This document shows, one piece after another, positions 6,053 to 35,051 of a stretch of DNA of 44,681 bases (the first letter of the stretch is position 1; every line of letters begins with the position of its first letter). The position numbers and the translations under genes were made by a program. Where the stretch lies: contig JAACFA010000035.1 of the NCBI GenBank assembly GCA_009937625.1, positions 1 through 44,681 of the forward strand. The letters run 5' to 3'. The notes under the pieces are model-generated. The model was given only the letters and a program-made list of their open reading frames with translations. It was not told the origin of the DNA and did not search any database. The DNA comes from Gammaproteobacteria bacterium (lineage in GTDB: Bacteria; Pseudomonadota; Gammaproteobacteria; GCA-001735895).

Positions 6053-6178
6053 CGAGAGAGCAGCTGCCATTTGTGCGCCGATCGTCCCAACCCGGTCGCC
6101 GTGTTACAAGTGCTTGCAGAATAAATAACTTGTAGGCTTAATACGCATTTCCCACGGTTTGATAGGTGCTTTCAGCCA

Positions 6179-6622
6179 ATGATCAACAAGATTCTGGTTG
6201 CTACCGACGCGTCCGCGGCGTCGGGCCGCGCGGTCAGTTTTGCTGCACAATTGGCAGTGATACACGAAGCGGAATTGCTGATCTTGAACGTCATTCGGGA
6301 CATGCAGCTGCCCGACGAACTCAAGAATGCGCCCGAGTTCGAATCCTTTAACAACACGCGTGACGACCTGATGCGCCAGGCCGCTGACCGGATCCTGGAC
6401 GAGGCCAGGAAAAAGGCCAAAAAAGCTGGTGCAAAAAAGGTGCAAACCGCTATCGGCAGCGGCGATCCGGCGACCAGCGTCGCGGGTTTTGCCAAGCGCC
6501 GTAAAGTCGACCTGATCGTTGTCGGCACGCGTGGCCTGTCGAAGATCAAGGCTGCCTCGATGGGCAGCGTGTCGCGCAAGCTGCTGGACCTGACCGACGT
6601 CAACTGTGCCGTTATCCGGTAG
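6179..6622 (+). CDS. Universal stress protein (UspA family)
   Basis: KILVATDAS at the N-terminus; GDPA...VDLIVVGTRG....MGSVS ATP-binding motif. Confidence 0.92.
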   Translation: MINKILVATDASAASGRAVSFAAQLAVIHEAELLILNVIRDMQLPDELKNAPEFESFNNTRDDLMRQAADRILDEARKKAKKAGAKKVQTAIGSGDPATSVAGFAKRRKVDLIVVGTRGLSKIKAASMGSVSRKLLDLTDVNCAVIR

Positions 6623-6630
6623 GTTTGGCA

Positions 6631-6731
6631 GTCATCCCCGCGCAGGCTTGCGCGGCCCGGCGGGGATCTTGAGAATCCCTGACGATAACCATCAAAGTAC
6701 ATTGGGAGATCCCCGCTTGCGCGGGGATGAC
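6631..6731. repeat. Inverted pair of GTCAT-tagged REP-like palindromes (REPIN-like)
   Basis: GTCATCCCCGCGCAGGC..GGGGATC (6631-6668, with an insertion) faces GATCCCCGCTTGCGCGGGGATGAC (6708-6731), between convergent usp and tdm. The same unit recurs at 33176 and 37584. Confidence 0.75.
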
Positions 6732-6771: not shown

Positions 6772-9138
6772 TTATTCCGGGGGCGGAACGTCGCGTACTC
6801 TCGATTTGGTCGGATCGTAGAAAGGGAAGGGCACAACTTTCGCCGGCAGACGCTTCTGCTTGCCGTCGAGCTTGCCGACCTCGACTTCGGTGCCGGCCGC
6901 GCTGTGCTCGACCTGGATGCGGCACAGCGCCAGGTTCTTGCGCAGGATTGGCGAGCGCACCGCGCTGGTGATCTCGCCAACCTGGTTACGCCCGATGTCG
7001 ACGCAGTCGCCGTTGGCGGCGAGCTCGTCGCCATTCAATTCGAGACCGACCAGTACCCGTTGCGGATTTTCCTTGCGCCTGACCAGTGACGCCTTGCCGA
7101 TGAAGTCGTCTTCCTTGGTTTTGAGCGGGACGGTAAACCCGATCCCGGCCTCGAACGGGTCGGTTTGATCGCTGAACTCGTAGCCGGCGAAAATCAGGCC
7201 GGCCTCGACGCGCAGCATGTCGAGGGCTTCGAGCCCCAGTGGAGTCAGATCGTAGTCCTTGCCGGCTTCCCAGACCGCGTCCCACACGGCGGGCGCATCC
7301 TTGGGATGGCAGAAAACCTCGTACCCGAGTTCACCGGTGTAGCCGGTGCGCGAAACCACCAGCGGGATGCCGTGTTCGTCGCCGATGCGCGCGATCGAGA
7401 AGCGGAACCATTCGAGTTCGTCGATGGTGGCCTGGTCGGGGCGCGTCCAGATTATCTGGCGCAGGATATCGCGGCTCTTCGGGCCCTGTACCTGCAGGTT
7501 ATGCAACTGGTCGGTCGAGTTTCTCACCCAGGCCTGCAGCCCCAGTTTTTCGGCCTGTTCGCGCAACCAGATTCCGCTCTCGTCGCTACCGCCGATCCAG
7601 CGAAAGTTATCCCGGCCGAGGCGAAACACGGTGCCGTCGTCGATCATGCCGCCGTTTTCGTAACACATCGCGGTATAAACTACCTGACCGACCGCAAGCC
7701 TGCGAATATTGCGCGTGACGCAGGTTTGCATCAGCAACTCCGCGTCGGGACCGGTAACCTCGTACTTGCGCAGTGGCGACAGGTCGATCACGACCGCGCC
7801 CTCGCGGCAGGCCCAGTACTCGTCGAGCGCGCCGTGCTTGGTGTAGCTGTTGGCGAGCCAGTAACCGGCGTACTCGGTGAAGTTACGCGTGTGTTCCGAA
7901 GTGCGGCTGTGAAAGCCGGTTTCCTTTGTCATCTCTTTGTCTGCGTCTGCTGTCATTCTGAATGCCGTCGCTTTGGTAAATGAATTTTTGCCCGGGTAGA
8001 CGCGCAGGTGGATATCGGTCGGGTTCCAGCCGTTAGCGGCGTCGATGTCGCAGGGACAGGCCGACGATACGCACAGGATATCTTTCAGCGCACGCATCAA
8101 TACGTAGTCACCGGGGCGTGACCAGGGTTCGTCGAAGTACATCTGGTTGGCGTCGTCGATCCCGGTGTTGAAGAACAGGTTGATCGCCATCCAGCCCTTG
8201 CGCGCTTCCACGCCGTAGGGTCGCAGCGCCTGGTTGAAGTTGTCCGAACAGTTGACGTGGCCGGGATAACCCATGTCGTCGTAGTACTTGGCGGTGCAGG
8301 CCGTGCCGAAGCTGTCGTGGCGGCCGCAGGTGTCCTGCACGACTTCGAGCATCGCCTCGAAGTTCTGGTCGTAAAACTTGGAGTAGAGACCCGGGGCCGG
8401 GTAGGCGGCGCCGACCACGTGCCGGGTGCCGGTAGCGTCGAGGCAGCGCTCCACGCCTTTTTCCAGCATCGGCGCGTCGAAGCACTGGAGATCCGAGCAT
8501 TCTCGTCCCTCGACGTCGATGATCTGGATGTAGTCGCCGGCCTTGACCTCGTAGGCGTAAGCGGTACGCGCAGCGATGCGCACATCGGCCAGCGGATCGG
8601 CCAGCGGATCGGGCAATCGGATTATCGATTCCCGCTCGGCGCCAGGCTGGCGATGAACGAAGGCGACCAGGTCGGTGGACGTATCCTGCCGGTCGGCGCG
8701 CATATCGCCGCCCGGCGCGGCAACAATGCAGGTAATGTCCTGCTGGGCGGTAAATCGCACCGAATCACCGGCTGGTGACCGATCCGCGAACACGCGGGTG
8801 CTGCGCGCCTGCTCGAGCGATATGCCCTTATCTGCCAGCGCCGCCTGCAATAAACCGGCGCTGCCTGCGCCAGATTCGATAATCTGTTTCAGGCCCTCGC
8901 TGTTGCCGTCGTGGCGAGCACCGATCAACCCGCTGTCGCTGCGACCGTTGCTATCGAATACGCTGATCTCGCCCGGCTGCAGGCCCTCCGGGTTAACCAG
9001 TTCCAGTTCGTCGCCGGCAGCAAGGCTGAGCGCCGTGCTGCCGCCGCCTTTTACCAGGTAACGCTCGATGTTGGTCGGTAGCACGTTGAGGCCGGGTTTG
9101 CGAACCCTTGGCTGGCTGGTGAACAGCGGCTGGCTCAT
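6772..9138 (-). CDS. tdm: Trimethylamine N-oxide demethylase (DUF1989 domain plus GcvT-like aminomethyltransferase)
   Basis: 788 aa; DUF1989-type region with RHDSFGTAC, HVNCSDN and SACPCDIDAANGWNPTDIH, followed by a THF-binding GcvT fold (DLSPLRKYEVTGPDA, SRTGYTGELGYE, LRVEAG). Tmm and GmaS are in the same island. Confidence 0.88.
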   Translation of the reverse strand: MSQPLFTSQPRVRKPGLNVLPTNIERYLVKGGGSTALSLAAGDELELVNPEGLQPGEISVFDSNGRSDSGLIGARHDGNSEGLKQIIESGAGSAGLLQAALADKGISLEQARSTRVFADRSPAGDSVRFTAQQDITCIVAAPGGDMRADRQDTSTDLVAFVHRQPGAERESIIRLPDPLADPLADVRIAARTAYAYEVKAGDYIQIIDVEGRECSDLQCFDAPMLEKGVERCLDATGTRHVVGAAYPAPGLYSKFYDQNFEAMLEVVQDTCGRHDSFGTACTAKYYDDMGYPGHVNCSDNFNQALRPYGVEARKGWMAINLFFNTGIDDANQMYFDEPWSRPGDYVLMRALKDILCVSSACPCDIDAANGWNPTDIHLRVYPGKNSFTKATAFRMTADADKEMTKETGFHSRTSEHTRNFTEYAGYWLANSYTKHGALDEYWACREGAVVIDLSPLRKYEVTGPDAELLMQTCVTRNIRRLAVGQVVYTAMCYENGGMIDDGTVFRLGRDNFRWIGGSDESGIWLREQAEKLGLQAWVRNSTDQLHNLQVQGPKSRDILRQIIWTRPDQATIDELEWFRFSIARIGDEHGIPLVVSRTGYTGELGYEVFCHPKDAPAVWDAVWEAGKDYDLTPLGLEALDMLRVEAGLIFAGYEFSDQTDPFEAGIGFTVPLKTKEDDFIGKASLVRRKENPQRVLVGLELNGDELAANGDCVDIGRNQVGEITSAVRSPILRKNLALCRIQVEHSAAGTEVEVGKLDGKQKRLPAKVVPFPFYDPTKSRVRDVPPPE

Positions 9139-9141
9139 GCC

Positions 9142-9885
9142 TCAGTCCGTTTCCAGCAGATCATCGTGCACCCCGTAAAGGTGTTGCTTGATCAGTTTTA
9201 CCGCGCTGGAGGTGTCGCGGGCGGCAATCGCTTCATACAGCTTGCGATGCTGGCTATTGTAATAATCGATGCGGTCCGGGGTCAGCAGTTTGGACTTCAT
9301 CGTGCGCCATTGCGAGTGGCGCCGTACCTCGCTGATGCGTTCGTACAGCCAGTACATGAGCTTGTTGCGAGAACAGTGCGCCAGCGCCATGTGAAACGCC
9401 GCGTCGCCGCGCGCGAACTTTTCGGGATCGCCCCCGCAGTCCTCGCATTGCCGTAGCGCTTCACGCAGCTCGTCCAGCTCACGCGCGCTGGCGTTGGCAA
9501 TCGCCAGGCGCACCATGTGCGGTTCGATCGCTATCCGCACCTCGTTCATTTCCAGCGGGCTGGTGATGCTGGATATCTCTTGCTGATTGGCGATTTCCCG
9601 GTGGGTGACGTAAGTTCCGCTGCCGACCTGGCGCGTCACCAGGTGCTGTTGTTCCAGGATTTGCAGCACCGAGCGGATGGTACCGCGCGACACCCCGTAC
9701 TCCTCGGCCAGGTTGCGTTCGGCCGGCAGTCTTTCCTCGTAGGCGTAGTCGCCCTCGAGAATACTGCGGCGCAGTTGCGCCGCGACGTTACTGGTGGTTA
9801 CGCCAACGCGATGTCCGCTGCTTTTTCGCTCCGGCCTGGTCTCCGGGTCGGACGACACAAGGTTGCTGCTGTCAGCTGCTTTCAC
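9142..9885 (-). CDS. GntR/FadR-family regulator (TmoR-like), coupled to tdm
   Basis: wHTH (ERLPAERNLAEEYGVSRGTIR) and FCD domain (DAAFHMALAHCSRN). GTG start with GAGGAG RBS; stop is 3 nt before the tdm ATG. Confidence 0.9.
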   Translation of the reverse strand: MKAADSSNLVSSDPETRPERKSSGHRVGVTTSNVAAQLRRSILEGDYAYEERLPAERNLAEEYGVSRGTIRSVLQILEQQHLVTRQVGSGTYVTHREIANQQEISSITSPLEMNEVRIAIEPHMVRLAIANASARELDELREALRQCEDCGGDPEKFARGDAAFHMALAHCSRNKLMYWLYERISEVRRHSQWRTMKSKLLTPDRIDYYNSQHRKLYEAIAARDTSSAVKLIKQHLYGVHDDLLETD

Positions 9886-9927
9886 GCTGATGAACTCCTC
9901 GCATTTAGGTATTATTATGGTACTGTC

Positions 9928-10215
9928 AATTGGTACAATAATGCGTCATTTCGGGGCTTAAATCAAGCCTGTATAGCGGGTAAAAAAACTGGATTCGATA
10001 CTATTGAGATAAAATTGGCACTAAGTCACAGAACTTCGTTGAGGCCTATGGGCTGTAGGTTGAAGTTGAACAAGTCATGCATCAATATACTCTAAGTAGC
10101 TGAACTAAAAGAATTAAATGTATAATAGTTTGATGCGCTTGCGGCCGCACAGTGCGTTTTGCGGCAACATTGGCAGTTACTTCCCGAACATAGACTTGCG
10201 AATTGGTCCACTAAT
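9928..10215. promoter_or_regulatory. Candidate GntR/FadR operator repeats AATTGGTmCAmTAAT in the divergent promoter region
   Basis: AATTGGTACAATAAT (9928-9942) and AATTGGTCCACTAAT (10201-10215) match at 13/15 positions; AATTGGT half-sites are typical of FadR-subfamily operators. Confidence 0.4.
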
Positions 10216-10427
10216 AACGCGAATTACCGGCGAAATTGTCCAAAAAAAGGTGCCAGAGGTCTTGTCTTGGCTGACCGGATGGGTATACCATGGCGGCCTG
10301 TCGGGTTCACCCAAACGTCAGGCCGGGCGGCGAAAACCAGAGATTCCCGAAGAATAACCACAGATCGGGCGCTGCCCTGGTAGAACCGAAGAGAAAAAAA
10401 TATTGGTCTTAAACCGTGGAGGGCAAA

Positions 10428-11894
10428 ATGACTGATTTAGAAGCATGCGTCGAAGCACCAGGCCGCGCGGAGCTGGTGCAGCAGGTCCGGGAAAAAATCA
10501 ACGAACTCGGAATCACCTACATCTATTACCAGTTCATCTCGGTAACGGGTCGGATCGTCGGTAAGGGTATTCCGGCCGATCACTGGGAGCGAACCGCGGA
10601 AAGAGGCTTTCAGCTGGTTTACGGCTCTACCGCCAACCTTTTTATCGATCGCCACGGCGATTACATCGGTTACGGACCGGAAGCGATGGAGCTGGTCGGT
10701 ATTCCCGATCCCGAAACTTTCTGTCAGTTGCCCTGGGATAAGCGCGTCGCGCGCGTGTTCTGCACCTGTTACCGCAACCGTGAAGAGCGCGAGAACCCGG
10801 GTGGCGCACTGACTTCCGATTGCCGCGGCAACCTGAAGCGATTCCACAAGGAATTCCGGGACAAGTACGACATGGATTTCCGCGTCGGTACCGAGCCGGA
10901 GATGATGTGGCTGAAGCGTGGTGAAGACGGCAAACCCGACGGCGGTTTCTCGAATCCCTACTGTTACCACATCGACCAGTTCGAATCGCTGCGCCCGGTA
11001 TTCATGCAGGTGATCGAGTACTGTAACGCGATGGGCCTCGACATGATCCAGGGCGATCACGAGGATGCACCGGGACAGCTCGAACTCAACTGGACCTTCG
11101 ATGACGTGCTGCGTAACGCCGACCGCCTGTCGACCTATCGCCAGATTTGCGCCCAGGTGGCGCGCGAAAACAACCTGATCGCCTGCTTCATGACCAAGCC
11201 GTTCATGGGCGTATCGGCGTCGGGTTGCCATACCAATGTATCGTTGTGGCAAGGCGGGGAGGAGAGCATCAACGCGCTGCACAACGATCCGCTGCCGGGT
11301 ATGGAAGGCGTGTTTACCTACCGCACCGGCGGGGAAAACCTGTTCATGCCGGACACTGACGATATGCAGAAGCCGGGCAAGGTCGGCCTGCAGTGCGTTG
11401 GCGGTATCGTCAATCACCTGCGAGCGCTAACGGCAATCGGTTCCTCGACGGTGAATTCTTATCGTCGCCTGTGGGATACCGGTTTCTGGGCGCCTGTATT
11501 TGCCGATTGGGGTTACCAGAACCGCACTACCGGCCTGCGCATTTCAGCACCGGGCCGCTTCGAGTATCGCTCGGTCGACTCGATGTGTAATCCTTACCTG
11601 ATGGGTGCCGGCTTGCTCAAGGCATTCGAGGATGGTATCGACAACGATATCGATCCCGGGGAGCCGGAGAACCGGAATATCTACCAGGCGATGGAAGCCG
11701 GCAAGGAAGTCAAGAAGCTGCCGATGTCGCTCGGCGAGGCGCTCGACGCCCTGGCCCAGGACGAGGTTATCAAGTCAGCTATGCCGAACGAGATGTACAA
11801 GATCTACCACTGGTACAAGAACGACGAGTGGGAGAAATTCATGCATACCACGACCGAGTGGGACCTGGAGATGTATCTCGACTGCCTGCCATAG
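10428..11894 (+). CDS. Glutamine synthetase-like gamma-glutamyl-amine ligase (non-canonical, distant GmaS paralog)
   Basis: GS motifs GTEPE, DHEDAPGQLE, FMTKP..SGCH, NSYRRL, NR..LRI and RFEYR. The glutamate-flap position is W (WAP) and there is no FDGSS. ATG at 10428 follows GGAGG. Confidence 0.85.
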   Translation: MTDLEACVEAPGRAELVQQVREKINELGITYIYYQFISVTGRIVGKGIPADHWERTAERGFQLVYGSTANLFIDRHGDYIGYGPEAMELVGIPDPETFCQLPWDKRVARVFCTCYRNREERENPGGALTSDCRGNLKRFHKEFRDKYDMDFRVGTEPEMMWLKRGEDGKPDGGFSNPYCYHIDQFESLRPVFMQVIEYCNAMGLDMIQGDHEDAPGQLELNWTFDDVLRNADRLSTYRQICAQVARENNLIACFMTKPFMGVSASGCHTNVSLWQGGEESINALHNDPLPGMEGVFTYRTGGENLFMPDTDDMQKPGKVGLQCVGGIVNHLRALTAIGSSTVNSYRRLWDTGFWAPVFADWGYQNRTTGLRISAPGRFEYRSVDSMCNPYLMGAGLLKAFEDGIDNDIDPGEPENRNIYQAMEAGKEVKKLPMSLGEALDALAQDEVIKSAMPNEMYKIYHWYKNDEWEKFMHTTTEWDLEMYLDCLP

Positions 11895-12002
11895 GCCGGT
11901 TTCGATCGAATCAAGCCCGGCGCCGGCCCCTGGCCGCGCCGGGAGTATTAACCAGGGGCTGCCCCGGTAGCCCGACTGTTAAAACTAGAAGAGGATATTC
12001 CT

Positions 12003-12941
12003 ATGTGTGGTATTGCTGGACTTATCTGGAAAGGCGGTGTTACCAGTGATATCGGTAGCGAGATGACCCAGATGCTGCAGGCGCTGAAGCATCGGGGGCC
12101 GGACTCGACCGGTTTTGCGCTCTACGGTAAAGGCGAGGAAGGCGTATACGTGTTGCGCTTCAAGGTTGCCGAGCAGGAAGACATGAAAACCGGCTTCGAT
12201 ATTCACAAGCAGGTGATCGAGCGCAAGGCGATGGTCGACACAAGGCTCGAGGAAATGGGTGCCGACGTTACCGCGCGCGAAGATGCGACCGAGTACGCCT
12301 TCCGCTATCACTTCAAATTCGGCGGCGACCTGAAGCGCCTGATCGATTTCATCGAGGACATCGAGGGGGTTGAAATCCTGTCGGTGGGCAAGGGCCTCGA
12401 ACTGATCAAGGACCTGGGTGATGCGGCCATCGTTGCCGAACAATACGGTCTGAAGGGTTTCGTCGGAACCCACGCCATTGGCCATACCCGCATGGCAACC
12501 GAATCCGACGTGGATATTCGCTCGGCCCACCCCTACTGGGCTTACCCGTTCAACGACGTTTCGGTGGTACACAACGGCCAGTTGACCAATTACTGGACGA
12601 AACGCCGCGACCTGGAGCGGCGCGGTCATCGTTTCATGTCGAACTGCGACTCCGAACTGATTGCGGTTTACGTTGCCGATCGTATCGACCAGGGCGACGA
12701 GCTCGAATCGGCGATGTCGCGTTCGATCGATGAACTCGACGGCGTGTTTACTTACCTGGTCGCCACCAGCGATCAGCTCGGCATGGCCAAGGACGTCATG
12801 GCAGCCAAGCCGATGGTGCTTTACGAGAGTGACGAATTCGTCGGCCTGGCTTCGGAAGAAGTAGCCATTCGCAGTATTTTCCCGCGTGAAATAGACACCT
12901 GGGATCCTTATCAAGGGGAGGTAAAAGTATGGGCAGCGTAA
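12003..12941 (+). CDS. mgsA: Class II glutamine amidotransferase, MgsA/GlxB-like subunit (cassette 1)
   Basis: N-terminal MCGIAG, HRGPDSTG, GHTRMATES, AHP, HNGQ, DSE and KPMVLYE. Confidence 0.85.
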   Translation: MCGIAGLIWKGGVTSDIGSEMTQMLQALKHRGPDSTGFALYGKGEEGVYVLRFKVAEQEDMKTGFDIHKQVIERKAMVDTRLEEMGADVTAREDATEYAFRYHFKFGGDLKRLIDFIEDIEGVEILSVGKGLELIKDLGDAAIVAEQYGLKGFVGTHAIGHTRMATESDVDIRSAHPYWAYPFNDVSVVHNGQLTNYWTKRRDLERRGHRFMSNCDSELIAVYVADRIDQGDELESAMSRSIDELDGVFTYLVATSDQLGMAKDVMAAKPMVLYESDEFVGLASEEVAIRSIFPREIDTWDPYQGEVKVWAA

Positions 12942-13765
12942 CTACATCCCATGAAATGGGGCTGCACGAGGAGCAGCTGTCGGGTCGCACCCAGCAGATG
13001 TATTTCTCGGCGACCGAGGAAGAAAACTTTACTTATCCGTGGGCCTACGAGGTCGACTACGACAAGTCCGCCGAGTTCGACGCGGCGGACATGGGCATCT
13101 CGGAGATCAACCTCAAGATCCGCGAACTGATGAAGTCGGGTCACGGTTCGATAACCGTGCAGAACCCGCGCGCCAAGCATTCACTCGGGGTCGGTATCCT
13201 GAATCGCCTCAACCTGAAGTTCGAAGGCAGCCTGGGTTATTTCGGCTGCGGCCTGATTGACGGGCCCAACGTGCACATCACCGGCCGCGTCGGCTGGTCC
13301 TGCGCCGAGAACATGATGGCCGGTACCGTGGTCATCGAAAAGAACGCGGGCTCGCTGTTCGGCGCCGCGATCCGCGGCGGCGACCTGGTGTGCAGGGGTC
13401 AGGCCGGCGCGCGCGTCGGCATCGATCAGAAGGGCGGCACTATCATCGTCGGCGGCAGCGTCGGCGCCTTTACCGGCTTCATGATGCAGCGCGGTCGCAT
13501 GATCATCCTCGGCGATACCGGCGACAACCTCGGCGACTCGATGTATGACGGCACCATCTACGTGGCCGGCAAGATCGCGAGCCTGGGCGTCGACTGCGTC
13601 GAAACCGAGTTGACCGATCTCGACAGGAAATACCTGCAGGGCAAGCTCGACCTCTACGGCATGGAAGCGCCCAACGGTATCGACAGCATCGTCAAGCTGA
13701 CGTCGGGCAAGCAGTTGTGGAACTACGACAACCTCGAGCCCACCGAGAAAAAGCTGGTGCTCTAG
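12929..13765 (+). CDS. mgsB: GXGXG beta-helix protein, MgsB/GlxC-like subunit (cassette 1)
   Basis: Gly-rich repeats (GSLGYFGCG, GRVGWSCAENMMAG, GARVGIDQKGG, GDSMYDG) with an N-terminal extension of about 45 aa. It overlaps the mgsA stop and has a GGAGG RBS. Confidence 0.85.
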   Translation: MGSVTTSHEMGLHEEQLSGRTQQMYFSATEEENFTYPWAYEVDYDKSAEFDAADMGISEINLKIRELMKSGHGSITVQNPRAKHSLGVGILNRLNLKFEGSLGYFGCGLIDGPNVHITGRVGWSCAENMMAGTVVIEKNAGSLFGAAIRGGDLVCRGQAGARVGIDQKGGTIIVGGSVGAFTGFMMQRGRMIILGDTGDNLGDSMYDGTIYVAGKIASLGVDCVETELTDLDRKYLQGKLDLYGMEAPNGIDSIVKLTSGKQLWNYDNLEPTEKKLVL

Positions 13766-13792
13766 GCATCACCGAGAATTTGGAGAATACAG

Positions 13793-15133
13793 ATGTCCGA
13801 AAAAAAGAAAGATCCATATAACCTCGGCAAGAGCTTCATCTTTCCGCCCGAGGTTATCAACGATATCCACATCAAGTCGGAGCTGGGACGTTACCGCATG
13901 CGCGGTTTCTCGCTGTTCAAGAAAATCCCGACCTGGGACGACCTGACCTTCATGCCGGGCACGCTGACCCGATTCGTGATCGAGGGTTACCGCGAAAAAT
14001 GTCTGACCAAGACCATTATCGGCCCGGAAGCGAAACGTCCGCTGGAACTCGATATACCGGTATACATCACCGGTATGTCCTTCGGCGCGCTTTCTTACGA
14101 GGCCAAGACGGCCCTGGCGCGCGGCGCGACCATGGCCGGCACCGCGACCTGCTCCGGCGAAGGCGGCATGATACCTGACGAGCGCCGTTATTCGTCGAAG
14201 TGGCTGTACCAGTGCATCCAGTCGCGTTACGGCTTCAATCCGAACCACCTGCGGCTGGCCGATGCCTGCGAATTTTTTATCGGCCAGGGCTGTAAGGTTG
14301 GCCTCGGCGGCCACCTGATGGGGCAGAAGGTCACCGACCAGGTCGCCGAAATGCGCTCGCTGCCGGCCGGTATCGACCAGCGTTCGCCGGCGCGCCATCC
14401 AGACTGGATGGGTCCGGATGACCTGGCGCTCAAGATCCAGGAAGTTCGCGAGGCTACCGATGGACAGATTCCGATCCAGCTCAAGCTCGGCGCGGCGCGG
14501 GTTTACGACGACGTGCGCATGGCGGCTAAAACGGGGCCAGACTCGATTTACATGGATGGCATGGAAGGTGGTACCGGCGCCGGGCCGCACCTGGCGACCG
14601 AGGATACCGGGGTTCCGGGTATTGCCGCGATTCGCCAGGCGCGCCAGGCGCTCGACGATGTCGGCATGTCGGGCCGTATTACGCTGGTTTACGCCGGGGG
14701 TATCCGCAACGGCGCCGACGTCGCCAAGGCGATCGCGCTGGGCGCGGACGCGGTGGCCATCGGCCACTCGGCGATGATGGCGCTGAACTGCAACAAGGAT
14801 ATCCCGGAAGCCGATTACGAGAAGGAAATGGGCGTCGAAGCCGGTTACTGTTACCACTGCCATACCGGTCGTTGCCCGGTGGGCGTTGCCACCCAGGATC
14901 CCGAGTTGCGCAAGCGTCTGGATCCCGACGAGGCGGCCGAGCGGGTCTATAATTTCCTGCACACGCTGACCATCGAGGCGCAGCTGTTCGCACGCGCCTG
15001 CGGCAAGACCAACATCCATTCGCTGGAGCCGGAAGACCTGGCGGCATTGACGCTCGAGGCCTCGGCCTGCGCGCAGGTGCCGATGGCCGGTACTCAATAC
15101 ACCGTCGGTCGCCCCGACATGACTCGTTTCTAA
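13793..15133 (+). CDS. mgsC: FMN-binding glutamate synthase family protein, MgsC/GlxD-like (cassette 1)
   Basis: GMSFGALS, SGEGGM, GQGCKVGLGGHL, SPARHPDW, DGMEGGTGA, GGIRNGADVAKAIALGADAV, CYHCHTGRCPVG and LEPEDL. Confidence 0.88.
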   Translation: MSEKKKDPYNLGKSFIFPPEVINDIHIKSELGRYRMRGFSLFKKIPTWDDLTFMPGTLTRFVIEGYREKCLTKTIIGPEAKRPLELDIPVYITGMSFGALSYEAKTALARGATMAGTATCSGEGGMIPDERRYSSKWLYQCIQSRYGFNPNHLRLADACEFFIGQGCKVGLGGHLMGQKVTDQVAEMRSLPAGIDQRSPARHPDWMGPDDLALKIQEVREATDGQIPIQLKLGAARVYDDVRMAAKTGPDSIYMDGMEGGTGAGPHLATEDTGVPGIAAIRQARQALDDVGMSGRITLVYAGGIRNGADVAKAIALGADAVAIGHSAMMALNCNKDIPEADYEKEMGVEAGYCYHCHTGRCPVGVATQDPELRKRLDPDEAAERVYNFLHTLTIEAQLFARACGKTNIHSLEPEDLAALTLEASACAQVPMAGTQYTVGRPDMTRF

Positions 15134-15144
15134 GGAGGTCGAAA

Positions 15145-15534
15145 ATGACTGAACTCAGTATTAACCATTTCCTCGAGGGCGACGGCGTCGATACCGAGCG
15201 CGAGAAAATCATCGGTCAACACATCGGCTACCGTTACGATGTGAACCTGGTGCCGGATATGGATCGCTGTACGCCATTCCTGCGCAAGTACATGGAGATC
15301 ATGGGCTGGCAGGACCTGAACTGGCTCGAAGACGTGCACATGGGATACGAGGAAGGGCGGCCCGCGGTGTTCGATCGCAATATCAACGGCTGGGTGACCA
15401 TCCCGGAAGATATCGAACTGCCGGATAACCAGCAGGACCGTGACATGATTGCGCGCGAACTGCTGGTCAAGTTCCAGATGGCAAAGGGACATCCGATGGT
15501 CGATCTGCGCAAGGCTTACGAAAAGTTTGCCTGA
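15145..15534 (+). CDS. Hypothetical soluble 129-aa protein, last gene of cassette 1
   Basis: AAGGAGG RBS overlapping the mgsC stop (11-nt gap); codon style matches the operon; no recognisable domain. Confidence 0.8.
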   Translation: MTELSINHFLEGDGVDTEREKIIGQHIGYRYDVNLVPDMDRCTPFLRKYMEIMGWQDLNWLEDVHMGYEEGRPAVFDRNINGWVTIPEDIELPDNQQDRDMIARELLVKFQMAKGHPMVDLRKAYEKFA

Positions 15535-15788
15535 GGAAAGCGGTGATAAGTGAATAAAATTAACGATTACCGGGGTTTCCAGTAATCCTTTTTTGTTTGG
15601 AAACTGACTGACGGCTCTTTAAATCTTAATTGATAAGGATCGTTGGTATAGGGTATAAAGATGTTTGATTTCTTTCGGGTGGTTAGGGCTTCCTGTGAAG
15701 GAGACTAGTCGCCTGGATTTAGATCAGTCGGATCTTATCCGGCAGTACGCTAGTATAAATTACAATCCTATAACAGAGGGGGGGGAAA

Positions 15789-17153
15789 ATGGATAACGAA
15801 CTATCGTCGCTCGTTATAATATTTACCGAGTTTTATTATTGGGTCACCGTCGTGTTCATGTTCCTGATACACGTCGGTTTCTGTATGTACGAGGTTGGCG
15901 CCTCACGCTATAAAAACCACACGCACACCCTGATGAAGAACACCATGCTTATCCCGCTGGTGACGATTACATTCTTCTTCTTTGGCTGGTGGATTTACTT
16001 TGCGGCCACACCCTGGAGCGAGCTGATGGGCACGCATATGGGTGGCGCGCCGGTTCAGGATACCCTGACCGCCGACGATACCGCCTATTGGGCGCGCATC
16101 AACGGTGTATTCTGGGCCGCATTCCTGCTGTTCTCCTGGACTGCTGCTTCGATCGTCTCCGGCGCCGTCATCGAGCGTATTCGTCCCAGCGCGTTCTGGA
16201 TCCTGGCCGTTGTGATCGGTTCTTTTACCTGGATCATCGACGCCTCATGGGGCTGGTCGTGGAACGGCTGGATGGTGCAAAAGCTGGGATACCACGATGC
16301 TTATGCTTCCGGCGTTATCCACGCGATCGCCGGTGGTTTTGCGCTTGGCGTGTTACTGGTACTGGGTCCGCGCATCGGCAAATTCCGTGCGGACGGCACG
16401 CCGAGAAATATCAATCCGCATAATCCGTGGCTGGTAACCATCGGGTTGTTCCTGATCTATACCGGCTTCTGGGGCTTTTACGTGGCCTGTAATATTCCCG
16501 TGATCGACGTATACGGCGGGGCCATGCTGGATGTGGAGGGTAAAACCTTCTTCAGCGCCACCAACATTTATTTACAGCCGACGACGCTATCCGCGATTAC
16601 CTTCAACTTTCTGATGTCGCTATCGGGCGGTTTGATGGTGGCGTATATCGTTTCCAATGGTGATGCATTCTGGACCTACTCCGGTGGTCTGGCCGGCGTT
16701 ATCGGCGCATCCTCGGGCAACGACCTGTATCACCCCATCCAGGCCATGCTGATTGGCGGCGGCGGCGCATTCATCGCCTTCAAGATGCATTACTGGGTTG
16801 AAAACAGGTTCAAGATCGACGATGCCGTAGGCGCGGTCGCGGTCCATGGTTATGCCGGTTTTTACGGTATCGTCATGGCCGGATTCATGCTGTGGGGCTA
16901 CCCGTCGTCGCCGTTCGAGGGTTATGCGGCCATTTCCCCATGGGGCAATTTCCTCGGCGCATTGATCATGTTCTTCGTACTGGGTTTTTTCCCGGCGCTG
17001 ATCGTCTCGAAGATCCTGCACGGTTTCGGCATGCTGCGTATCCCGCGCGAAATCGAACTGGTTGGCCTGGATATCAACTATGAATCGGCGCGTGCCGCCG
17101 ATGCCGACGAAGTGGCACAGGCAATTCGGGAAGAAGCCCGTAACAGCGCCTGA
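15789..17153 (+). CDS. amt: Amt/Mep/Rh-family transporter 1 (divergent; probable methylamine-type substrate)
   Basis: About 11 TM segments; GFCMYEVG, SGAVIERI, HDAYASGVIH, LGPRIGKF and KIDDAVGAVAVHG (twin-His retained). Confidence 0.88.
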   Translation: MDNELSSLVIIFTEFYYWVTVVFMFLIHVGFCMYEVGASRYKNHTHTLMKNTMLIPLVTITFFFFGWWIYFAATPWSELMGTHMGGAPVQDTLTADDTAYWARINGVFWAAFLLFSWTAASIVSGAVIERIRPSAFWILAVVIGSFTWIIDASWGWSWNGWMVQKLGYHDAYASGVIHAIAGGFALGVLLVLGPRIGKFRADGTPRNINPHNPWLVTIGLFLIYTGFWGFYVACNIPVIDVYGGAMLDVEGKTFFSATNIYLQPTTLSAITFNFLMSLSGGLMVAYIVSNGDAFWTYSGGLAGVIGASSGNDLYHPIQAMLIGGGGAFIAFKMHYWVENRFKIDDAVGAVAVHGYAGFYGIVMAGFMLWGYPSSPFEGYAAISPWGNFLGALIMFFVLGFFPALIVSKILHGFGMLRIPREIELVGLDINYESARAADADEVAQAIREEARNSA

Positions 17154-17505: not shown

Positions 17506-17525
17506 ATTATCTCCCCGGGTATTTG

Positions 17526-18026
17526 ATGATAAAAGATGCGCTCTCGGCTATACCGAGCCGGCCGGTCCTGTATATCGCGCCCGTTATCGTGATCGTGGTG
17601 CTGCTGCTTTATTACCGGGACCTGTATATCAAGTGCAGCGATATCAGGCAGCATCGTGAGTCACTAAACGAGTTGATACCGACACTGGACGCATCGGCGC
17701 AATTTCGGCTGGCGGAGTTCACCGGGTTTCGCTGGGATAAGGTCAGGATCATTGCGAAGCTCGAACCCGATGTCAGAACTGTCGAATGTCCCTTCGGCTG
17801 GAACTGGGTCAGTGGCCAAAGGGAATCGCTCGCAAATGCCGGATTATTGAGCGCATTGATATTTGCCCAGCAGGGCACGATCGTAAAATATCTCGAAGTG
17901 CGCAATGACGAAGTCGCGTTTCGTGGCGCCGACTCCAGTTTAACCCCGCAAACCGCGGTTTTTAGTGTCGCTACGAATTCCGATAGCGGCAGCGCCGTTG
18001 CTCTGATATTGAATAAAAAAAACTAG
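17526..18026 (+). CDS. Hypothetical membrane-anchored protein
   Basis: About 166 aa with one N-terminal TM helix (VLYIAPVIVIVVLLLYY); lower GC than neighbours. Confidence 0.6.
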   Translation: MIKDALSAIPSRPVLYIAPVIVIVVLLLYYRDLYIKCSDIRQHRESLNELIPTLDASAQFRLAEFTGFRWDKVRIIAKLEPDVRTVECPFGWNWVSGQRESLANAGLLSALIFAQQGTIVKYLEVRNDEVAFRGADSSLTPQTAVFSVATNSDSGSAVALILNKKN

Positions 18027-19212: not shown

Positions 19213-19680
19213 ATGTCCCCGATCCTGAAACGTAGTTTGATATTTATAGTCTTGATGGCGGCCGGGCTGGTGTTGTACATGTCCTGGTACAACATCAAGG
19301 CTGAACGTTTTAACGAGACTGCAATTCCCTACCTGGAACAGGCCCTGCCAAAGTTAACCAGCTGGCAATATCCAGAACTCGAGATGCTGTTGTCTCCTAC
19401 GGCAAAGACCGTATTTGCATCCGATAAAGTTCGGGCTGCTTATCAAGAGTTTAGCCAGTTAGGGCAGCTGCAATCGATGAGCCGACCCGAATTCATGGGA
19501 AATCGCTCCGAGACTTTCGAGGAGCTGGGGGATGTCGAGTTAATCGCCTACCAGGTGCAGCTGGAGTTCGAAACCGGACCGGCCGTGATAAAACTGAACC
19601 TGGCCAGCGACGGCCAGCGCTACTACATCCATCACTTCGGTATTCACTCGCATATATTCGCCGATCACGACGATTCCTAG
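19213..19680 (+). CDS. Hypothetical exported or membrane-anchored protein
   Basis: 155 aa with an N-terminal TM/signal segment; no confident family assignment. Confidence 0.6.
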   Translation: MSPILKRSLIFIVLMAAGLVLYMSWYNIKAERFNETAIPYLEQALPKLTSWQYPELEMLLSPTAKTVFASDKVRAAYQEFSQLGQLQSMSRPEFMGNRSETFEELGDVELIAYQVQLEFETGPAVIKLNLASDGQRYYIHHFGIHSHIFADHDDS

Positions 19681-21479: not shown

Positions 21480-21497
21480 ATCCACCGCTTGAAAATG

Positions 21498-21531
21498 AAG
21501 CCTCGCCTGGAAACAGGTGGGGCTTTTTTTT
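21498..21531 (+). terminator. Rho-independent terminator
   Basis: AAGCCTCGCCTG-GAAA-CAGGTGGGGC followed by a run of 8 T. Confidence 0.85.
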
Positions 21532-21578
21532 GTGCTGGCGGAAATTTTCTCGAACTCAGAATCGCCGCTCCAGCTGAC

Positions 21579-21959
21579 TTACAACTGCTTGAGCTCTTCC
21601 TCGTCGAGCGCCCGATTACTGCCGCGCAGCATCACCAGCAGGGTGCACCCCTGAGGCGCATGCGAGCTGTGTTTCGAGCCCGGGCCGAAACGCACGAAGT
21701 CGCCGGCGCGGTAGCTGCTGCCGTCGCAGTCGACGAGTTCTCCGTCCATCACCAGGAATTCCTCGAACCCGGTGTGTTCATGAGGCTTCGATCGGGCGCC
21801 GGCGTCCATGCGCAGCAGAAAGCACTCGAAGTCATCGTTCAAGCGCTCGCCGCTAAGCGGCAGCCAGGACATACCCGGCACCGGGGTGCCGTAACGATCG
21901 TAGGGGATAAAGTTTCCATCCCCGGTGTTGATGATTTGCCGCAAACTGGTGTCGAGCAT
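21579..21959 (-). CDS. ChrR-like cupin domain protein
   Basis: LLRMDAGARSKPHEHTGFEEFLVMDGEL and YRAGDFVRFGPGSKHSSHAPQGC, the two cupin metal-binding motifs. Confidence 0.82.
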   Translation of the reverse strand: MLDTSLRQIINTGDGNFIPYDRYGTPVPGMSWLPLSGERLNDDFECFLLRMDAGARSKPHEHTGFEEFLVMDGELVDCDGSSYRAGDFVRFGPGSKHSSHAPQGCTLLVMLRGSNRALDEEELKQL

Positions 21960-22150
21960 GATCTCTGGATTCTCCGCCTGATACGCCTTTGTAAACAGGC
22001 GCAGTTTCTGTCGATTGCGCAGGGATTACAAGCCCCCGCGAGCGCCGATTCTGCGCGCCCGTATCAATTTTACGGGTGAGCTGGCGCCCTATTTATAACC
22101 CGGGGCGAGTGTCGATTGATTCAAGTGGTTTTCGACCGCTGCCGAAGGCC

Positions 22151-24489: not shown

Positions 24490-25364
24490 ATGTGCGGAAT
24501 AGCAGGTGTTTTATACAAGCAGGCGGGCAACCACGAAATCGGCAAAACGCTGATCGAAATGCTCGATGGCTGCCAGCATCGCGGACCGGACAGCACCGGC
24601 TTCGCGCTGTATGGCGAGGATAAGGATTTGCTGCAGCTGCGATTTATCGTGCCGACCGATGCCGGTGCTTGCCAGGACGCGATCGACGGTATCGCGACGC
24701 TGCTCGAGCGCCACGGAGCGACTATCGAATCCGAGCTGTCGGTGGGTTGCTCCTACCAGATCTCGGTCAATTTCGAAGGTGACCTGCTGGCTTTCACCAA
24801 GGACATCGAGGAACACGCCAAACTGGTCTCGGTCGGGCACGCGCTCGATATCATCAAGGACGACGGCACCGCGCACGAACTCGACGAGCTTTATCACGTC
24901 GGCGAGGTCAGGGGTACCCACGGTATCGGGCACGTGCGGCGCACCCGTTCTGGGCCACCGGCTTCGAAGACATAGCGATCGTGCACAACGGGCAGATCAC
25001 CAATTACTGGAAAATGCGCCGCCGGCTGGAACGCCGCGGTTTCACCTTCCATACCGATAACGACAGCGAACTGGTCGCGGTGTATCTCGCCGACAAACTG
25101 GAACAGGGCGAGACGCTCGACAGCGTGCTGGAAACAGCGATCGCGGACCTGGACGGCACGTTTTCGTTCCTGGTGTCGACGCCAAACGAAATCGGCTACG
25201 CCAAGGACAACCTGGCGGCCAAGCCGATGGTGCTCTACGAAACCGACGACATGATTGCCATCGCCTCCGAGGAGGTCAGCCTGAATCGACTGTTTCCAGG
25301 GCAATCCATCAATTCAACCGAACCGGCCCCGGGGACCTTTCAGACATGGTCACGATCGATTTAA
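24490..25364 (+). pseudogene. mgsA: MgsA-like class II amidotransferase (cassette 2), broken by a frameshifting deletion at about 24939 (real or artefact)
   Basis: The first frame reads MCGIAG...HGIGHVR; the second resumes AAHPFWATGFEDIAIVHNGQITNYW. The xATESDV segment present in the paralog at 12003 is absent. Confidence 0.8.
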
Positions 25365-27322: not shown

Positions 27323-27324
27323 GC

Positions 27325-29896: not shown

Positions 29897-31213
29897 GTGG
29901 CCAAAGATCTCGAAGCGATCGCAAAAGCAAAAAAAATAAAGTATTTCCTGGTGAGCTGGGTCGACCTGTTCGGCGTGCTGCGCGCCAAGCTGGTGCCGGC
30001 GCGCGCGATCAAGGGGATGCAGAAAGACGGCGCCGGCTTTGCCGGGTTCGCGGCCTGGCTCGACATGACGCCGGCACACCCGGACCTGTTTGCCATTCCC
30101 GATCCCGACAGCCTGATTCAACTGCCGTGGAAACCGGAAATCGGCTGGGTCGCGGCGGACCTGTGGATGGATGGCAAGGAAGTCGAGGCTTCGCCCCGGG
30201 TCGCACTCAAGCGGCAACTCGCCAAAGCCCGGAAAAAAGGTTACCGCATGAAGACCGGGGTCGAGTGCGAGTACCACCTGATTACCTCTGACGGCAGCAG
30301 CATCGCCGACGCCGCCGACACCCAGTCCAAACCCTGTTATGACCAGCTGGCCTTGATGCGCCAGTACCCGGTGATCGGAGAAATTTGCGACTGCATGCTC
30401 AAGCTGGGCTGGAATCCCTACCAGAACGATCACGAGGACGCCAACGGGCAGTTCGAGATGAACTGGGATTACGACGATGCGCTGAAAACCGCCGATAAGC
30501 ACGTGTTTTTCAAGTACATGGTCAAGACGATTGCCGAAAATCACGGCCTGCGCGCGACCTTCATGCCGAAGCCGTTCACACATCTGACCGGTAACGGTTG
30601 TCACGCTCACGTCTCGCTATGGGATCGTGCCGGCAAGAAGAACCTGTTCGCCACCGCTCGCAGGGAGCCGCGGGACCTTGGCCTGTCACCGCTCGCCTAC
30701 AAGGCGCTGGGCGGCATCATGCACAACGCCCAGGACTTGACCGCAATTTTCAATCCCACGGTCAACAGCTACAAGCGCATCAATGCACCGCGCACGCTAT
30801 CGGGCGCCACCTGGTCGCCCAACGCGGTGACCTACAGCGGTAACAATCGTACCCACATGATTCGTGTGCCCGAGGACGGGCGTTTCGAACTGCGCTTGAT
30901 GGACGGTTCGGCTAATCCCTATCTAATGCAGGCCGGTGTGCTGGCCGCAATTCTCGACGGCATCGAGAACAAGCGCGATCCGGGCGATCCGATCCATCTG
31001 AACATGTACGAGGAAGGGCACAAGGTCAAGAGTGCGAAGAAACTGCCGGGTAACCTGCTCGATGCATTACGCCAACTTGATCGTAACAAGGAAATCCGTG
31101 CCGGTCTGGGCGACGAACTGATCGACGCCTACATCAAGCTCAAGCTCGATGAGTGGACCAACTACATGAGCAGCCTGAGCGACTGGGAACGAGCCAACAC
31201 GCTGGATTGCTGA
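29897..31213 (+). CDS. gmaS: Gamma-glutamylmethylamide synthetase (GlnT-type glutamate-methylamine ligase)
   Basis: IKYFL...DLFGVLRAKLVPA, GAGFAGFAAWLDMTPAHPD, KPCYDQ, YQNDHEDANGQFEMNW, SGATWSPN and NNRTHMIR. Confidence 0.92.
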   Translation: MAKDLEAIAKAKKIKYFLVSWVDLFGVLRAKLVPARAIKGMQKDGAGFAGFAAWLDMTPAHPDLFAIPDPDSLIQLPWKPEIGWVAADLWMDGKEVEASPRVALKRQLAKARKKGYRMKTGVECEYHLITSDGSSIADAADTQSKPCYDQLALMRQYPVIGEICDCMLKLGWNPYQNDHEDANGQFEMNWDYDDALKTADKHVFFKYMVKTIAENHGLRATFMPKPFTHLTGNGCHAHVSLWDRAGKKNLFATARREPRDLGLSPLAYKALGGIMHNAQDLTAIFNPTVNSYKRINAPRTLSGATWSPNAVTYSGNNRTHMIRVPEDGRFELRLMDGSANPYLMQAGVLAAILDGIENKRDPGDPIHLNMYEEGHKVKSAKKLPGNLLDALRQLDRNKEIRAGLGDELIDAYIKLKLDEWTNYMSSLSDWERANTLDC

Positions 31214-33303: not shown

Positions 33304-33831
33304 ATGGACCCCGCCGAACAGTATCAAAGTTTTATCTCCTGGCAGTGCCGCCTGCGTAAGCTCGCCATGCGCGAGCGAGACGGGCGCCCCAGCGAGGGCA
33401 TGAGAGCCGGTATACACGCGGTCGCCGGGGGTGACGAACAGGCCCGGATCAACGTCCTGATCAACCGTGTGAACTCATCCGATCGCACCAGCGAGTTCCG
33501 TCATATCATCCGCAAAACGCACGATTCGAGTCAATGGGTAAAGAACGGACTGCGGATCCTGGCCGAACTGCATTATCACGAAACAGATCAGTTCGTGAAC
33601 GAATTATCCGCGCTGTTCAGTTACGACTCTTCAATCGCCTATGCCTTGCTAAAGGCAGGGCAGTGCAAGCTGAGGTTCGCCGAGGGCAGCATCGAGCATG
33701 CTTTCGATTTCGATGTCAGGTCGCTGGACCAGGATGACGAGCTGTTCCAGGCAACCTACTGGCACAATCACCTGTTCAACCCCGCGCTGCCGGGCAAGGT
33801 GCGGGTGCTGGCGTTTACGCCGCGGTTATAA
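33304..33831 (+). CDS. Hypothetical protein (WQCRxR ... TYWHNxLFNP motifs)
   Basis: 175-aa ORF downstream of fhs; its stop overlaps that of the convergent GATase gene. Confidence 0.75.
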   Translation: MDPAEQYQSFISWQCRLRKLAMRERDGRPSEGMRAGIHAVAGGDEQARINVLINRVNSSDRTSEFRHIIRKTHDSSQWVKNGLRILAELHYHETDQFVNELSALFSYDSSIAYALLKAGQCKLRFAEGSIEHAFDFDVRSLDQDDELFQATYWHNHLFNPALPGKVRVLAFTPRL

Positions 33832-34548: not shown

Positions 34549-35051
34549 TGGTCTTCCAGGTAGATTGAGAGTTCCCGCAAATGACGTTCGTCGTCGTGAT
34601 CGTCGATCGACTGCGTGCGCGCGATGTGTTCGACGTAATGCGACGGAAATTCATGCTCCAGCGCGCCGCGCAGCACGTGCTCCTTGTACCAGTGATAGGG
34701 CCGTCGCCGCCGATCGATTTCCAGCGCGAAGTAGGTAAAGACCTCGATGCCCTCGCCGTGCAGGGCGGTAACCTGGATCTCCCGGCGCTCGTAGCCGATA
34801 CCGGCACCTTCGTAAACATCGAGCTCGAGCCTGTCGTCGTGCGTCATCAGATAGACCGCGCCATAGACGATATCTCCCGGATTGCCGGTAAAGTCGATAT
34901 CGCACTTGCCCGATAAATCCCGCCCTTTCTTGTGCCAGCAAAGTTGATGCTGATGCAGCGTCGCGACGCAATGTTTTGAGGCCTGGGGGATGCGTTCCAG
35001 CAGGCGCGCGCTCGACAGGTTCGAGCCGAAAGCGAAATAACTAGTCTTCAT
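34545..35051 (-). CDS. Gamma-glutamylcyclotransferase family protein
   Basis: YFAFGSNL, VYGAVY, LDVYEG..GYER and PYHWYKEHVLRGALEH; ATGA overlap with the GATase gene. Confidence 0.88.
   Translation of the reverse strand: MKTSYFAFGSNLSSARLLERIPQASKHCVATLHQHQLCWHKKGRDLSGKCDIDFTGNPGDIVYGAVYLMTHDDRLELDVYEGAGIGYERREIQVTALHGEGIEVFTYFALEIDRRRRPYHWYKEHVLRGALEHEFPSHYVEHIARTQSIDDHDDERHLRELSIYLEDQ

Follow-up and report, generated by a model that had tools for sequence, protein, structure and literature searches.

The window analysed here is a 44,681 nt stretch of contig JAACFA010000035.1 from a gammaproteobacterial metagenome-assembled genome (MAG; GCA_009937625.1), and the gene under study, at 10428..11894 on the plus strand, encodes a glutamine synthetase (GS)-fold protein, GSL488, hereafter the ligase. 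The open reading frame (ORF) spans 10416-11894 (+) and would encode 492 aa if a GTG start were used; the ATG at 10428, with a GGAGG 8 nt upstream, gives 488 aa, and the resulting MTDLE start agrees with the orthologues. The ligase gene heads a five-gene operon on the plus strand. After 108 nt it is followed by A1 (12003..12941), a class-II (N-terminal nucleophile, Ntn) glutamine-amidotransferase-like paralogue of MgsA that starts MCGI and matches Pfam GATase_6/7. A1 overlaps by 13 nt with B1 (12929..13765), a GXGXG-domain subunit and MgsB paralogue (PF01493), which is followed at 27 nt by C1 (13793..15133), a subunit with an FMN glutamate-synthase domain and paralogue of MgsC (PF01645, 311 bits), and then, 11 nt further on, by orf129 (15145..15534), a 129-aa ORF for a conserved small protein.

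The operon lies in an island of methylated-amine genes. Upstream, across a 542 bp intergenic region (9886..10427) that includes the GGAGG ribosome-binding site, are a divergent gene for a GntR/FCD-family regulator (9142..9885, -; Pfam GntR and FCD) and tdm (6772..9138, -; NF053776, 1227.5 bits against a cut-off of 1100), which encodes the trimethylamine N-oxide (TMAO) demethylase that produces dimethylamine. Downstream are an Amt-family transporter gene (15789..17153, +; PF00909), folD, a second amt, tmm (NF058570, 841 bits), an HTH-cupin regulator, a second GltB-like set, a canonical gmaS and fhs. From Pfam and NCBIfam scores, a tree, active-site residues and an AlphaFold2 model we predict, with good confidence, that GSL488 is an active GmaS-type glutamate-alkylamine ligase of methylated-amine catabolism, from a clade that is neither GS nor GmaS.

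The ligase has a single Pfam match, PF00120 (Gln-synt_C; 274.8 bits against a cut-off of 24), and falls under every curated NCBIfam cut-off: it scores 302.8 bits, in two stretches, on the GSIII/GmaS family TIGR03105 (cut-off 469.6), 256.7 bits on TIGR00653 (GlnA; 429.15) and 225.9 bits on NF045547 (PuuA; 650). The comparison gene at 29897..31213 (+, 438 aa) reaches 655.1 bits on TIGR03105 and 624 bits against the crystallised Rhodovulum GmaS (PDB 7cql), and is therefore a bona fide gmaS. A tree of 55 rows was built with IQ-TREE (quick, LG+C20) and its rows labelled by NCBIfam score, excluding fragmentary representatives and two paralogues from the window's own genome (C52, apparently frameshifted, and C297, cut by the contig start). 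In it the ligase belongs to a clade of 16 rows with a Shimodaira-Hasegawa-like approximate likelihood ratio (SH-aLRT) support of 100 and a stem length of 0.83. The TIGR03105/GmaS clade (16 rows, support 98) is separate, and sister to the ligase clade at a weak support of 83, while GlnA (support 99) and the PuuA-like groups lie outside both. Forcing the ligase clade into the Rhodovulum-type GmaS subclade, which was chosen after inspection of the tree, was rejected (delta lnL 30.4; approximately unbiased (AU) test, p = 0.012).

A preliminary description, made from the DNA alone, had set this gene apart from both GlnA and GmaS and had pointed to a tree as a check; the ligase indeed falls outside the characterised GmaS clade, and the sub-cut-off scores and the replaced Asp50 and flap Glu described below agree with the distinction. 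Assignment as GmaS is ruled out by the TIGR03105 score and the separate clade, and assignment as PuuA by the NF045547 score, the PuuA-like rows forming other clades. GlnA is ruled out by the TIGR00653 score, by the separate clade and by the replacement of Asp50', Glu327 and His210. As a GS-like ligase predicted to gamma-glutamylate an organic amine, the protein resembles PuuA of the Puu pathway, but it is distant from PuuA in the tree and its operon contains no PuuC- or PuuD-type genes.

The catalytic machinery common to the superfamily is complete. Motifs were checked in an alignment of the ligase with E. coli GlnA and PuuA (from the K-12 record), the gmaS of the window and SAR11 orthologues, and conservation was counted in a 309-sequence alignment holding 206 ligase orthologues. 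The ExE pair (E156/E158), the HE..GQxE motif (H211-E212...E219), H268, R347, R366/R371 and E379-x-R381 are invariant in all 206, and together cover the type I GS residues E129, E131, E212, E220, H269, E357, R321, R339, R344 and R359. The two-metal site and the ATP and glutamate ligands of type I GS are thus present, as the preliminary description had it. The AlphaFold2 model, from a 61-row alignment, has a mean predicted local distance difference test (pLDDT) score of 93.6. Searched with Foldseek, it matches GS and GmaS chains alike, at template modelling (TM) scores of 0.79-0.83, so the fold cannot separate the two. The GSI-alpha-type fold (TM 0.79-0.82) is shared with the GmaS structures (EC 6.3.4.12; TIGR03105) from Rhodovulum sp. 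12E13 (7cql) and Methylovorus mays (9qur), and the fold and the two-metal/ATP/glutamate site with GlnA of E. coli, B. subtilis (4lni) and M. mazei (8s59).

The departures of the ligase from GlnA include residues that handle ammonium. In true GS, Asp50' and the flap residue Glu327 are required for ammonium binding and deprotonation, according to the available part of the RhGmaS study (PMC7948447). The flap of the ligase reads TGFWAP where GlnA has PGYEAP, making W354 the flap residue; VYGST stands at the FDGSS site, and the Asp50 equivalent is V64 or Y65, neither of them acidic (the register is uncertain by one residue). The position of GlnA His210 is occupied by a GmaS-type Asp, and the equivalent of E. 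coli H271 is N270, an Asn in 199 of the 206 orthologues.

Comparison with GmaS gives a different picture. In the same available text the RhGmaS methylamine site comprises Tyr147, Gln175, Asp177, Glu179, Glu186, Asn188 and Lys30' of the neighbouring subunit, with Asp177 as the base that deprotonates methylamine and Trp300 as the flap residue (PMC7948447). The counterparts of K30', Y147, Q175 and D177 in the ligase are K46, Y180, Q208 and D210, and those of E179, E186, N188 and W300 are E212, E219, N221 and W354; all are kept in 205-206 of the 206 orthologues. The ligase therefore shares with GmaS the metal, ATP and glutamate ligands, a QxDHEDAxGQxExNW set, Lys30' and the flap Trp (ATWSP in GmaS), and since the Trp is common to both it does not distinguish one from the other. 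The preliminary description had called the amine pocket remodelled relative to both families. Against GmaS this does not hold for the eight pocket and catalytic residues, and the wording is overstated, the core of the amine site being GmaS-like as judged from the alignments. The features it listed (WAP flap, VYGST, ASG and two insertions) were all recovered in the alignments.

The differences from GmaS lie around the core and in overall divergence, the two proteins being only about 30% identical and separated by the long stem. The Asp50' loop of the neighbouring subunit reads G-F-Q-L-V-Y-G-S-T-A-N-L-F in the ligase and is kept across its clade as QLVYG[SA]TANLF, whereas GmaS has GAGFAGFA (Ala48'; FAGFA in the gmaS of the window). 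The motif before the ligand His is A-S-G-C-H, followed by x-N, in place of G-N-G-C-H-x-H. The ligase lacks a 4-aa insert that GmaS has before the flap; it adds a 17-aa N-terminal extension, an insertion of about 7 aa (RNREERE, residues ~117-123) and one of about 24 aa (residues ~277-300). Both insertions are predicted to be folded and occur in all close orthologues, the 24-aa one being limited to the core clade and its nearest cluster (63% identical).

The operon has the layout of an N-methylglutamate (NMG) front end, in which a ligase is accompanied by genes with class-II amidotransferase, GXGXG and FMN glutamate-synthase domains; like gmaS, the ligase gene heads MgsABC-like genes. What sets it apart from the GmaS system is the partner synthase, which is a paralogue with 30-54% identity, and the additional gene orf129. 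A1, B1 and C1 are about 30%, 35% and 52-54% identical to canonical MgsABC. Compared with the SAR11 loci described below, the A1 of the window shares 28-32% identity with their canonical mgsA and 57-62% with the SAR11 A1; for C1 the values are 52-54% (canonical MgsC) and 78-80% (SAR11 C1). The module is an ancient paralogue of GmaS plus the NMG synthase MgsABC, and because its three subunits are paralogues, membership in the canonical NMG system is not established. orf129 matched nothing in a Pfam search, and is 75% identical over 117 aa to a 138-aa ORF that follows C1 in one SAR11 locus.

The ligase is widespread and its surroundings are conserved. A word-indexed protein search scored 8000 candidates and retained 3752 relatives at E <= 1e-20; the best 120 of these are all 79-97% identical and, where named, are 'glutamine synthetase family protein' of Arenicellales, SAR324 or Planctomycetota. 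A species-genome scan found relatives in at least 595 genomes, of which 80 loci were kept for counts of gene order, each count being taken over loci with enough flank. These loci are mostly from Pelagibacteraceae (SAR11), so that one family dominates, and the ligases of this family are 78-79% identical to ours. A1 lies directly 3' of the ligase in 72/74, C1 is present in 66/68, and an Amt gene follows in 61/65. On the 5' side, tdm is found within 6 kb in 56/67 loci, and a DAO-family flavoprotein directly precedes the ligase in 68/75, making it the commonest upstream neighbour; presumably it stands to the ligase as PuuB does to PuuA. Of the 75 loci whose upstream flank reaches 1.5 kb or more, 6 resemble our window in having a GntR homologue 5' of the ligase. 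The own genome of the window does hold a SAR11_1304-type flavoprotein gene (63% identical), on another contig (C271:4468-5811). A gmaS gene is present in the same locus in 53/57 cases, and a canonical mgsC in 12/57; where the locus has no canonical mgsC, near-complete SAR11 genomes lack the gene altogether (four of four). In other arrangements the ligase is accompanied by genes resembling those for NMG dehydrogenase: one locus (L012) combines the ligase and A1B1C1 with soxB/A/G-like genes, and another (L014) combines the ligase with soxB/A/G-like genes, canonical mgsABC and gmaS.

Gene order identifies the SAR11 counterpart. As far as the available text of two studies goes, 'Candidatus Pelagibacter ubique' HTCC1062 has, in order, SAR11_1303 (tdm-like AMT), 1304 (monomeric sarcosine-oxidase-like), 1305 (glnT), 1308 (gltB2), 1310 (amt), 1313-1315 (glxBCD) and 1316 (glnT/GMAS) (PMC3160333, PMC3870248). 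This order is also that of the SAR11 loci with the 78-79% identical ligase, and our operon is equated with SAR11_1305-1308 on this gene order, the HTCC1062 sequence itself not being among the loci compared; the window differs in having gntR, not the flavoprotein gene, 5' of the ligase. The same sources label SAR11_1305 glnT or glutamine synthetase (PMC3160333, PMC3870248), and one reports in its available portion that the protein was detected and was less abundant under nitrogen limitation, unlike glnA (PMC3870248). No functional study of SAR11_1305 was found in the non-subscription literature searched, where the gene appeared in expression tables only.

The operon is also represented in RNA libraries. 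Contigs from marine and sediment libraries of three studies match it at 95-100% identity and span the ligase/A1, A1/B1 and B1/C1 junctions, a hint that the operon is transcribed that falls short of proof for one transcript. For two of the studies (runs X7 and X9) cover is confined to about 10380-15083, and the uncovered stretches are a weak hint of transcript ends; for the third (runs X1 and X2) it extends everywhere, including intergenic DNA and gntR, so carry-over of DNA is possible. A scan of 9800-15900 with the sigma-70 consensus returned no site (3.0 expected), and four terminator-like sites were found there, all on the minus strand (5.6 expected). No Rfam family reached the gathering threshold in the whole window, hence no known riboswitch lies 5' of the ligase.

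We surveyed 552 genomes, 251 from Alphaproteobacteria and 301 from Gammaproteobacteria (tdm was scored in 300 of the latter), at thresholds of E <= 1e-100 for a ligase orthologue, 1e-150 for tdm and 1e-120 for TIGR03105. Among Alphaproteobacteria 23 genomes have the ligase, 17 have tdm and 14 have both; the gammaproteobacterial figures are 17, 16 and 13. PF11927, the HODM/DmmA family, is found in 26 and 25 genomes, respectively. Overall, 27 genomes carry ligase and tdm, 13 the ligase only, 6 tdm only and 506 neither. Of the 33 tdm-positive genomes, the 27 with the ligase include just one PF11927 match (G035), which is weak and partial at 51 bits, whereas five of the six without it (G098, G110, G366, G449, G546) have a full-length match of 214-241 bits; the remaining genome, G255, lacks both the ligase and PF11927. 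This contrast gives a Fisher p of 1.5e-4, uncorrected for phylogeny. A relaxed search of those five genomes recovered no ligase orthologue; four of them carry canonical MgsC only, while in G366, whose status is unsure, a C1-type gene (89% identical) and B1 lie at the end of a contig. The genome of the window, 93% complete, has no PF11927 match. Three tdm-positive Alphaproteobacteria (G099, G218, G231) have the ligase and no TIGR03105 match, in keeping with a route in which free methylamine is never required.

Which amine, then, does the ligase use? In its available part, one study reports that neither SAR11 nor abundant marine Gamma- and Deltaproteobacteria carry dmmDABC, and that a Ruegeria pomeroyi dmmA mutant is unable to obtain nitrogen from dimethylamine or TMAO (PMC5520151); HTCC1062 is described as growing with TMAO as sole nitrogen source without these genes, for which a Dmm isoenzyme of unknown identity was proposed (PMC8918994, PMC5520151). 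GmaS is unsuited to the task, because the Km values given for RhGmaS are 16 mM for dimethylamine and 27 uM for methylamine (PMC7948447). Paralogues are rare in SAR11, according to the portion available of another study (PMC3870248), and yet 53 of 57 SAR11 loci retain the two ligases together, which argues for different substrates; that the ligase uses an amine other than that of GmaS, as the preliminary description had also supposed, is plausible on this side-by-side occurrence. Of the candidates we favour dimethylamine, which the neighbouring Tdm produces, as the physiological amine, while rating it somewhat below an even chance. The linkage to tdm and the complementarity with Dmm among tdm-positive genomes speak for it.

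On this proposal, the ligase would phosphorylate glutamate to gamma-glutamyl phosphate, Asp210 (RhGmaS Asp177) would deprotonate the attacking amine and Glu219 would take the last proton, so that dimethylamine, glutamate and ATP would yield gamma-glutamyl-dimethylamide. A1, as an Ntn amidotransferase, would then release dimethylamine into the FMN domain of C1, where N,N-dimethylglutamate would be formed. A flavoprotein would demethylate this to NMG, the candidates being the SAR11_1304-type DAO enzyme (on contig C271 in the own genome) and SoxBDAG-type enzymes, and demethylation of NMG would return glutamate. That the five-gene module and the SAR11_1304-type flavoprotein together make up a complete ATP-driven dimethylamine route, with no free methylamine and two C1 units delivered to tetrahydrofolate, is a more doubtful proposition than the choice of amine, and we hold it only as a possible scheme.

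Several observations weigh against dimethylamine and this route. The methylamine-binding residues of GmaS are unchanged, and no feature of the protein sequence specifically indicates a pocket enlarged, or made more hydrophobic, to take two methyl groups. In 45 of 57 SAR11 loci and in four of four whole SAR11 genomes, gmaS is accompanied by no MgsABC-like enzyme other than A1B1C1, which must then serve methylamine too; this weakens the case for a module dedicated to dimethylamine. The module coexists with a full-length PF11927 match, and no tdm, in G270, G465 and the unpublished G551, where it is therefore no replacement for Dmm; G270 and G465 also have canonical mgsABC, with gmaS beside it in G270. 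G366, positive for tdm and HODM, may hold all three systems. Of the 40 ligase-positive genomes, 13 have no tdm at E <= 1e-150, and the co-occurrence counts ignore relatedness, the gammaproteobacterial contrast being one of nine families versus two. Finally, the same non-subscription literature yielded no precedent for formation of a tertiary amide or for a GltB-type FMN domain that makes N,N-dimethylglutamate, and no gamma-glutamyl-dimethylamide route.

Alternatively, the ligase would be a second gamma-glutamylmethylamide synthetase, a methylamine isoenzyme of, for example, other affinity or regulation, that feeds a marine-type NMG synthase A1B1C1. The missing dimethylamine step would then fall to a different enzyme, perhaps the SAR11_1304-type flavoprotein with dimethylamine as its direct substrate. 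The conserved RhGmaS residues for methylamine binding and catalysis, the sister position to GmaS (support 83), the presence of the ligase in NMG-pathway clusters (L012, L014), the status of A1B1C1 as sole MgsABC-like set in most SAR11 genomes and the coexistence of the ligase with Dmm in G270, G465 and G551 are all in keeping with such an enzyme. So are the flavoprotein as the commonest 5' neighbour and the lack of a TIGR03105 match in 5 of the 23 ligase-positive Alphaproteobacteria, which would be expected if the ligase replaced GmaS. On the other hand, two isofunctional ligases side by side would be unusual in streamlined SAR11 genomes, the near-exclusive complementarity with Dmm among tdm-positive genomes would be left unexplained, and the clade-specific Asp50' loop, ASG motif and 24-aa insertion suggest a changed active-site environment. 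We regard a methylamine isoenzyme as unlikely, though it is the chief rival of the dimethylamine reading. More improbable in our estimation is another small amine (candidates are ethylamine, ethanolamine, hydroxylamine and C2-C3 amines released when osmolytes are broken down), from which the module would make the matching N-alkylglutamate. GS-like ligases exist for many amines, among them PuuA in our tree as well as GlnA3/GlnA4 and IpuC. RhGmaS accepts ethylamine and hydroxylamine in the available account (PMC7948447), and both the tdm-less ligase carriers and the complete canonical dimethylamine and methylamine pathway in G270 and G465 would fit. The close adjacency to tdm and the strong genome-level association with it speak for methylated amines, as do folD, fhs and tmm around the ligase in the window, and neither an aldehyde dehydrogenase gene nor any other gene for handling C2 compounds is conserved next to the ligase.

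The annotation carried by SAR11_1305 would imply a true ammonium-assimilating GS, paired with a split GltB-like glutamate synthase to recapture the ammonium of methylated amines. The GS fold (TM about 0.82 to M. mazei GS), the nearby Amt transporter and the likeness of a GS plus GltB-domain operon to GS/GOGAT lend this some colour. It is nevertheless very improbable, given that Asp50' and flap Glu327, the residues for ammonium use in the available RhGmaS text, are replaced and that RhGmaS, with the same pocket, has a Km of 8.7 mM for ammonium (PMC7948447). The GmaS-type Asp at the His210 position points the same way. Moreover, the operon has neither GltD nor a ferredoxin partner, SAR11_1305 falls under nitrogen limitation where glnA does not (PMC3870248, available portion), and the own genome carries glnA separately, as a fragment at the end of a contig.

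Besides that fragment (C312:41666-41758), the own genome has at least seven other GS-family loci, including PuuA-like genes on C11, C254 and C297, a divergent one on C238 and the apparently frameshifted C52 (5079-6355), which is closest to gmaS. In two gammaproteobacterial MAG loci (L013, L014) additional GS-like genes, of 449 and 531 aa and with 24-27% identity to gmaS, lie 5' of the ligase, close to genes for a PhyH dioxygenase, an N-formylglutamate amidohydrolase, a PNPOx-like protein and a luciferase-like monooxygenase. Three giant proteins (P0125, P0176 and P0172; 4424, 2757 and 1356 aa) contain five to six GS-like stretches 27-30% identical to the ligase, and may be mis-joined gene calls or real fusions. 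The ligase of the window is 78% identical to that of a genome of the same genus (G407) and 90-92% identical to those of two genomes from other families (G517, G466), which suggests that the module moves horizontally.

The second GltB-like set, at 24490-29841 directly 5' of gmaS, comprises an MgsA-like gene, a 658-aa B+C fusion (GXGXG and FMN domains) and an 838-aa protein that joins a GltD-like NAD(P)H/FAD/Fe-S part to a Glu_synthase domain fragment; it would be an NAD(P)H-linked variant of NMG synthase. An Arenicellales locus (L011) carries the same three genes at 42-66% identity. Identification of this set as dmmDABC was considered and rejected, Dmm consisting of a HODM-family protein (PF11927) and a GcvT protein. 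Its MgsA-like gene is broken at 24930-24975, where the frame shifts after GTHGIGHV and about 10-11 residues found in A1 (MATESDVDIRS) are missing; this would be either a deletion with frameshift or an assembly error in this MAG. Just past fhs, at 33826-35084 (-), a gene for a class-I glutamine-amidotransferase-like protein (240 aa) precedes one for a gamma-glutamyl-cyclotransferase-like protein (AIG2/GGACT, 179 aa), and gamma-glutamyl amides are possible substrates of the pair. Another four ORFs, 155-196 aa long (17523-18026, 19213-19680, 21489-22079 and 6172-6702) sit among amt, folD, tmm and tdm and gave no Pfam or NCBIfam match. Two of them, orf167 and orf176, recur in related gammaproteobacterial loci, at 47% and 70% identity in L009 and at 38% in L093.

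The absence of dmmDABC from SAR11 and other abundant tdm carriers has stood as an open problem since 2017, in the available text of PMC5520151, and was restated in 2022 in the form that these bacteria "may recruit an isoenzyme" (available part of PMC8918994). Among the uncharacterised genes beside tdm, the ligase and its operon rank with the best conserved; they occur in 40 of the 552 genomes surveyed and offer a candidate explanation for dimethylamine use by SAR11-type ocean bacteria. Dimethylamine is an aerosol-forming, climate-relevant amine. If the proposed route is true, it would take the place of DmmDABC, for which a substitute has long been sought, in SAR11, SAR324, SUP05/Arenicellales-type Gammaproteobacteria and others, would close the dimethylamine bottleneck of marine methylated-amine cycling, and would add two metabolites new to the literature searched. 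Even if the amine is methylamine, surveys that use gmaS as a marker overlook the ligase clade, and most SAR11 genomes have as their main NMG-synthase-like enzyme the paralogue A1B1C1, not the characterised type.

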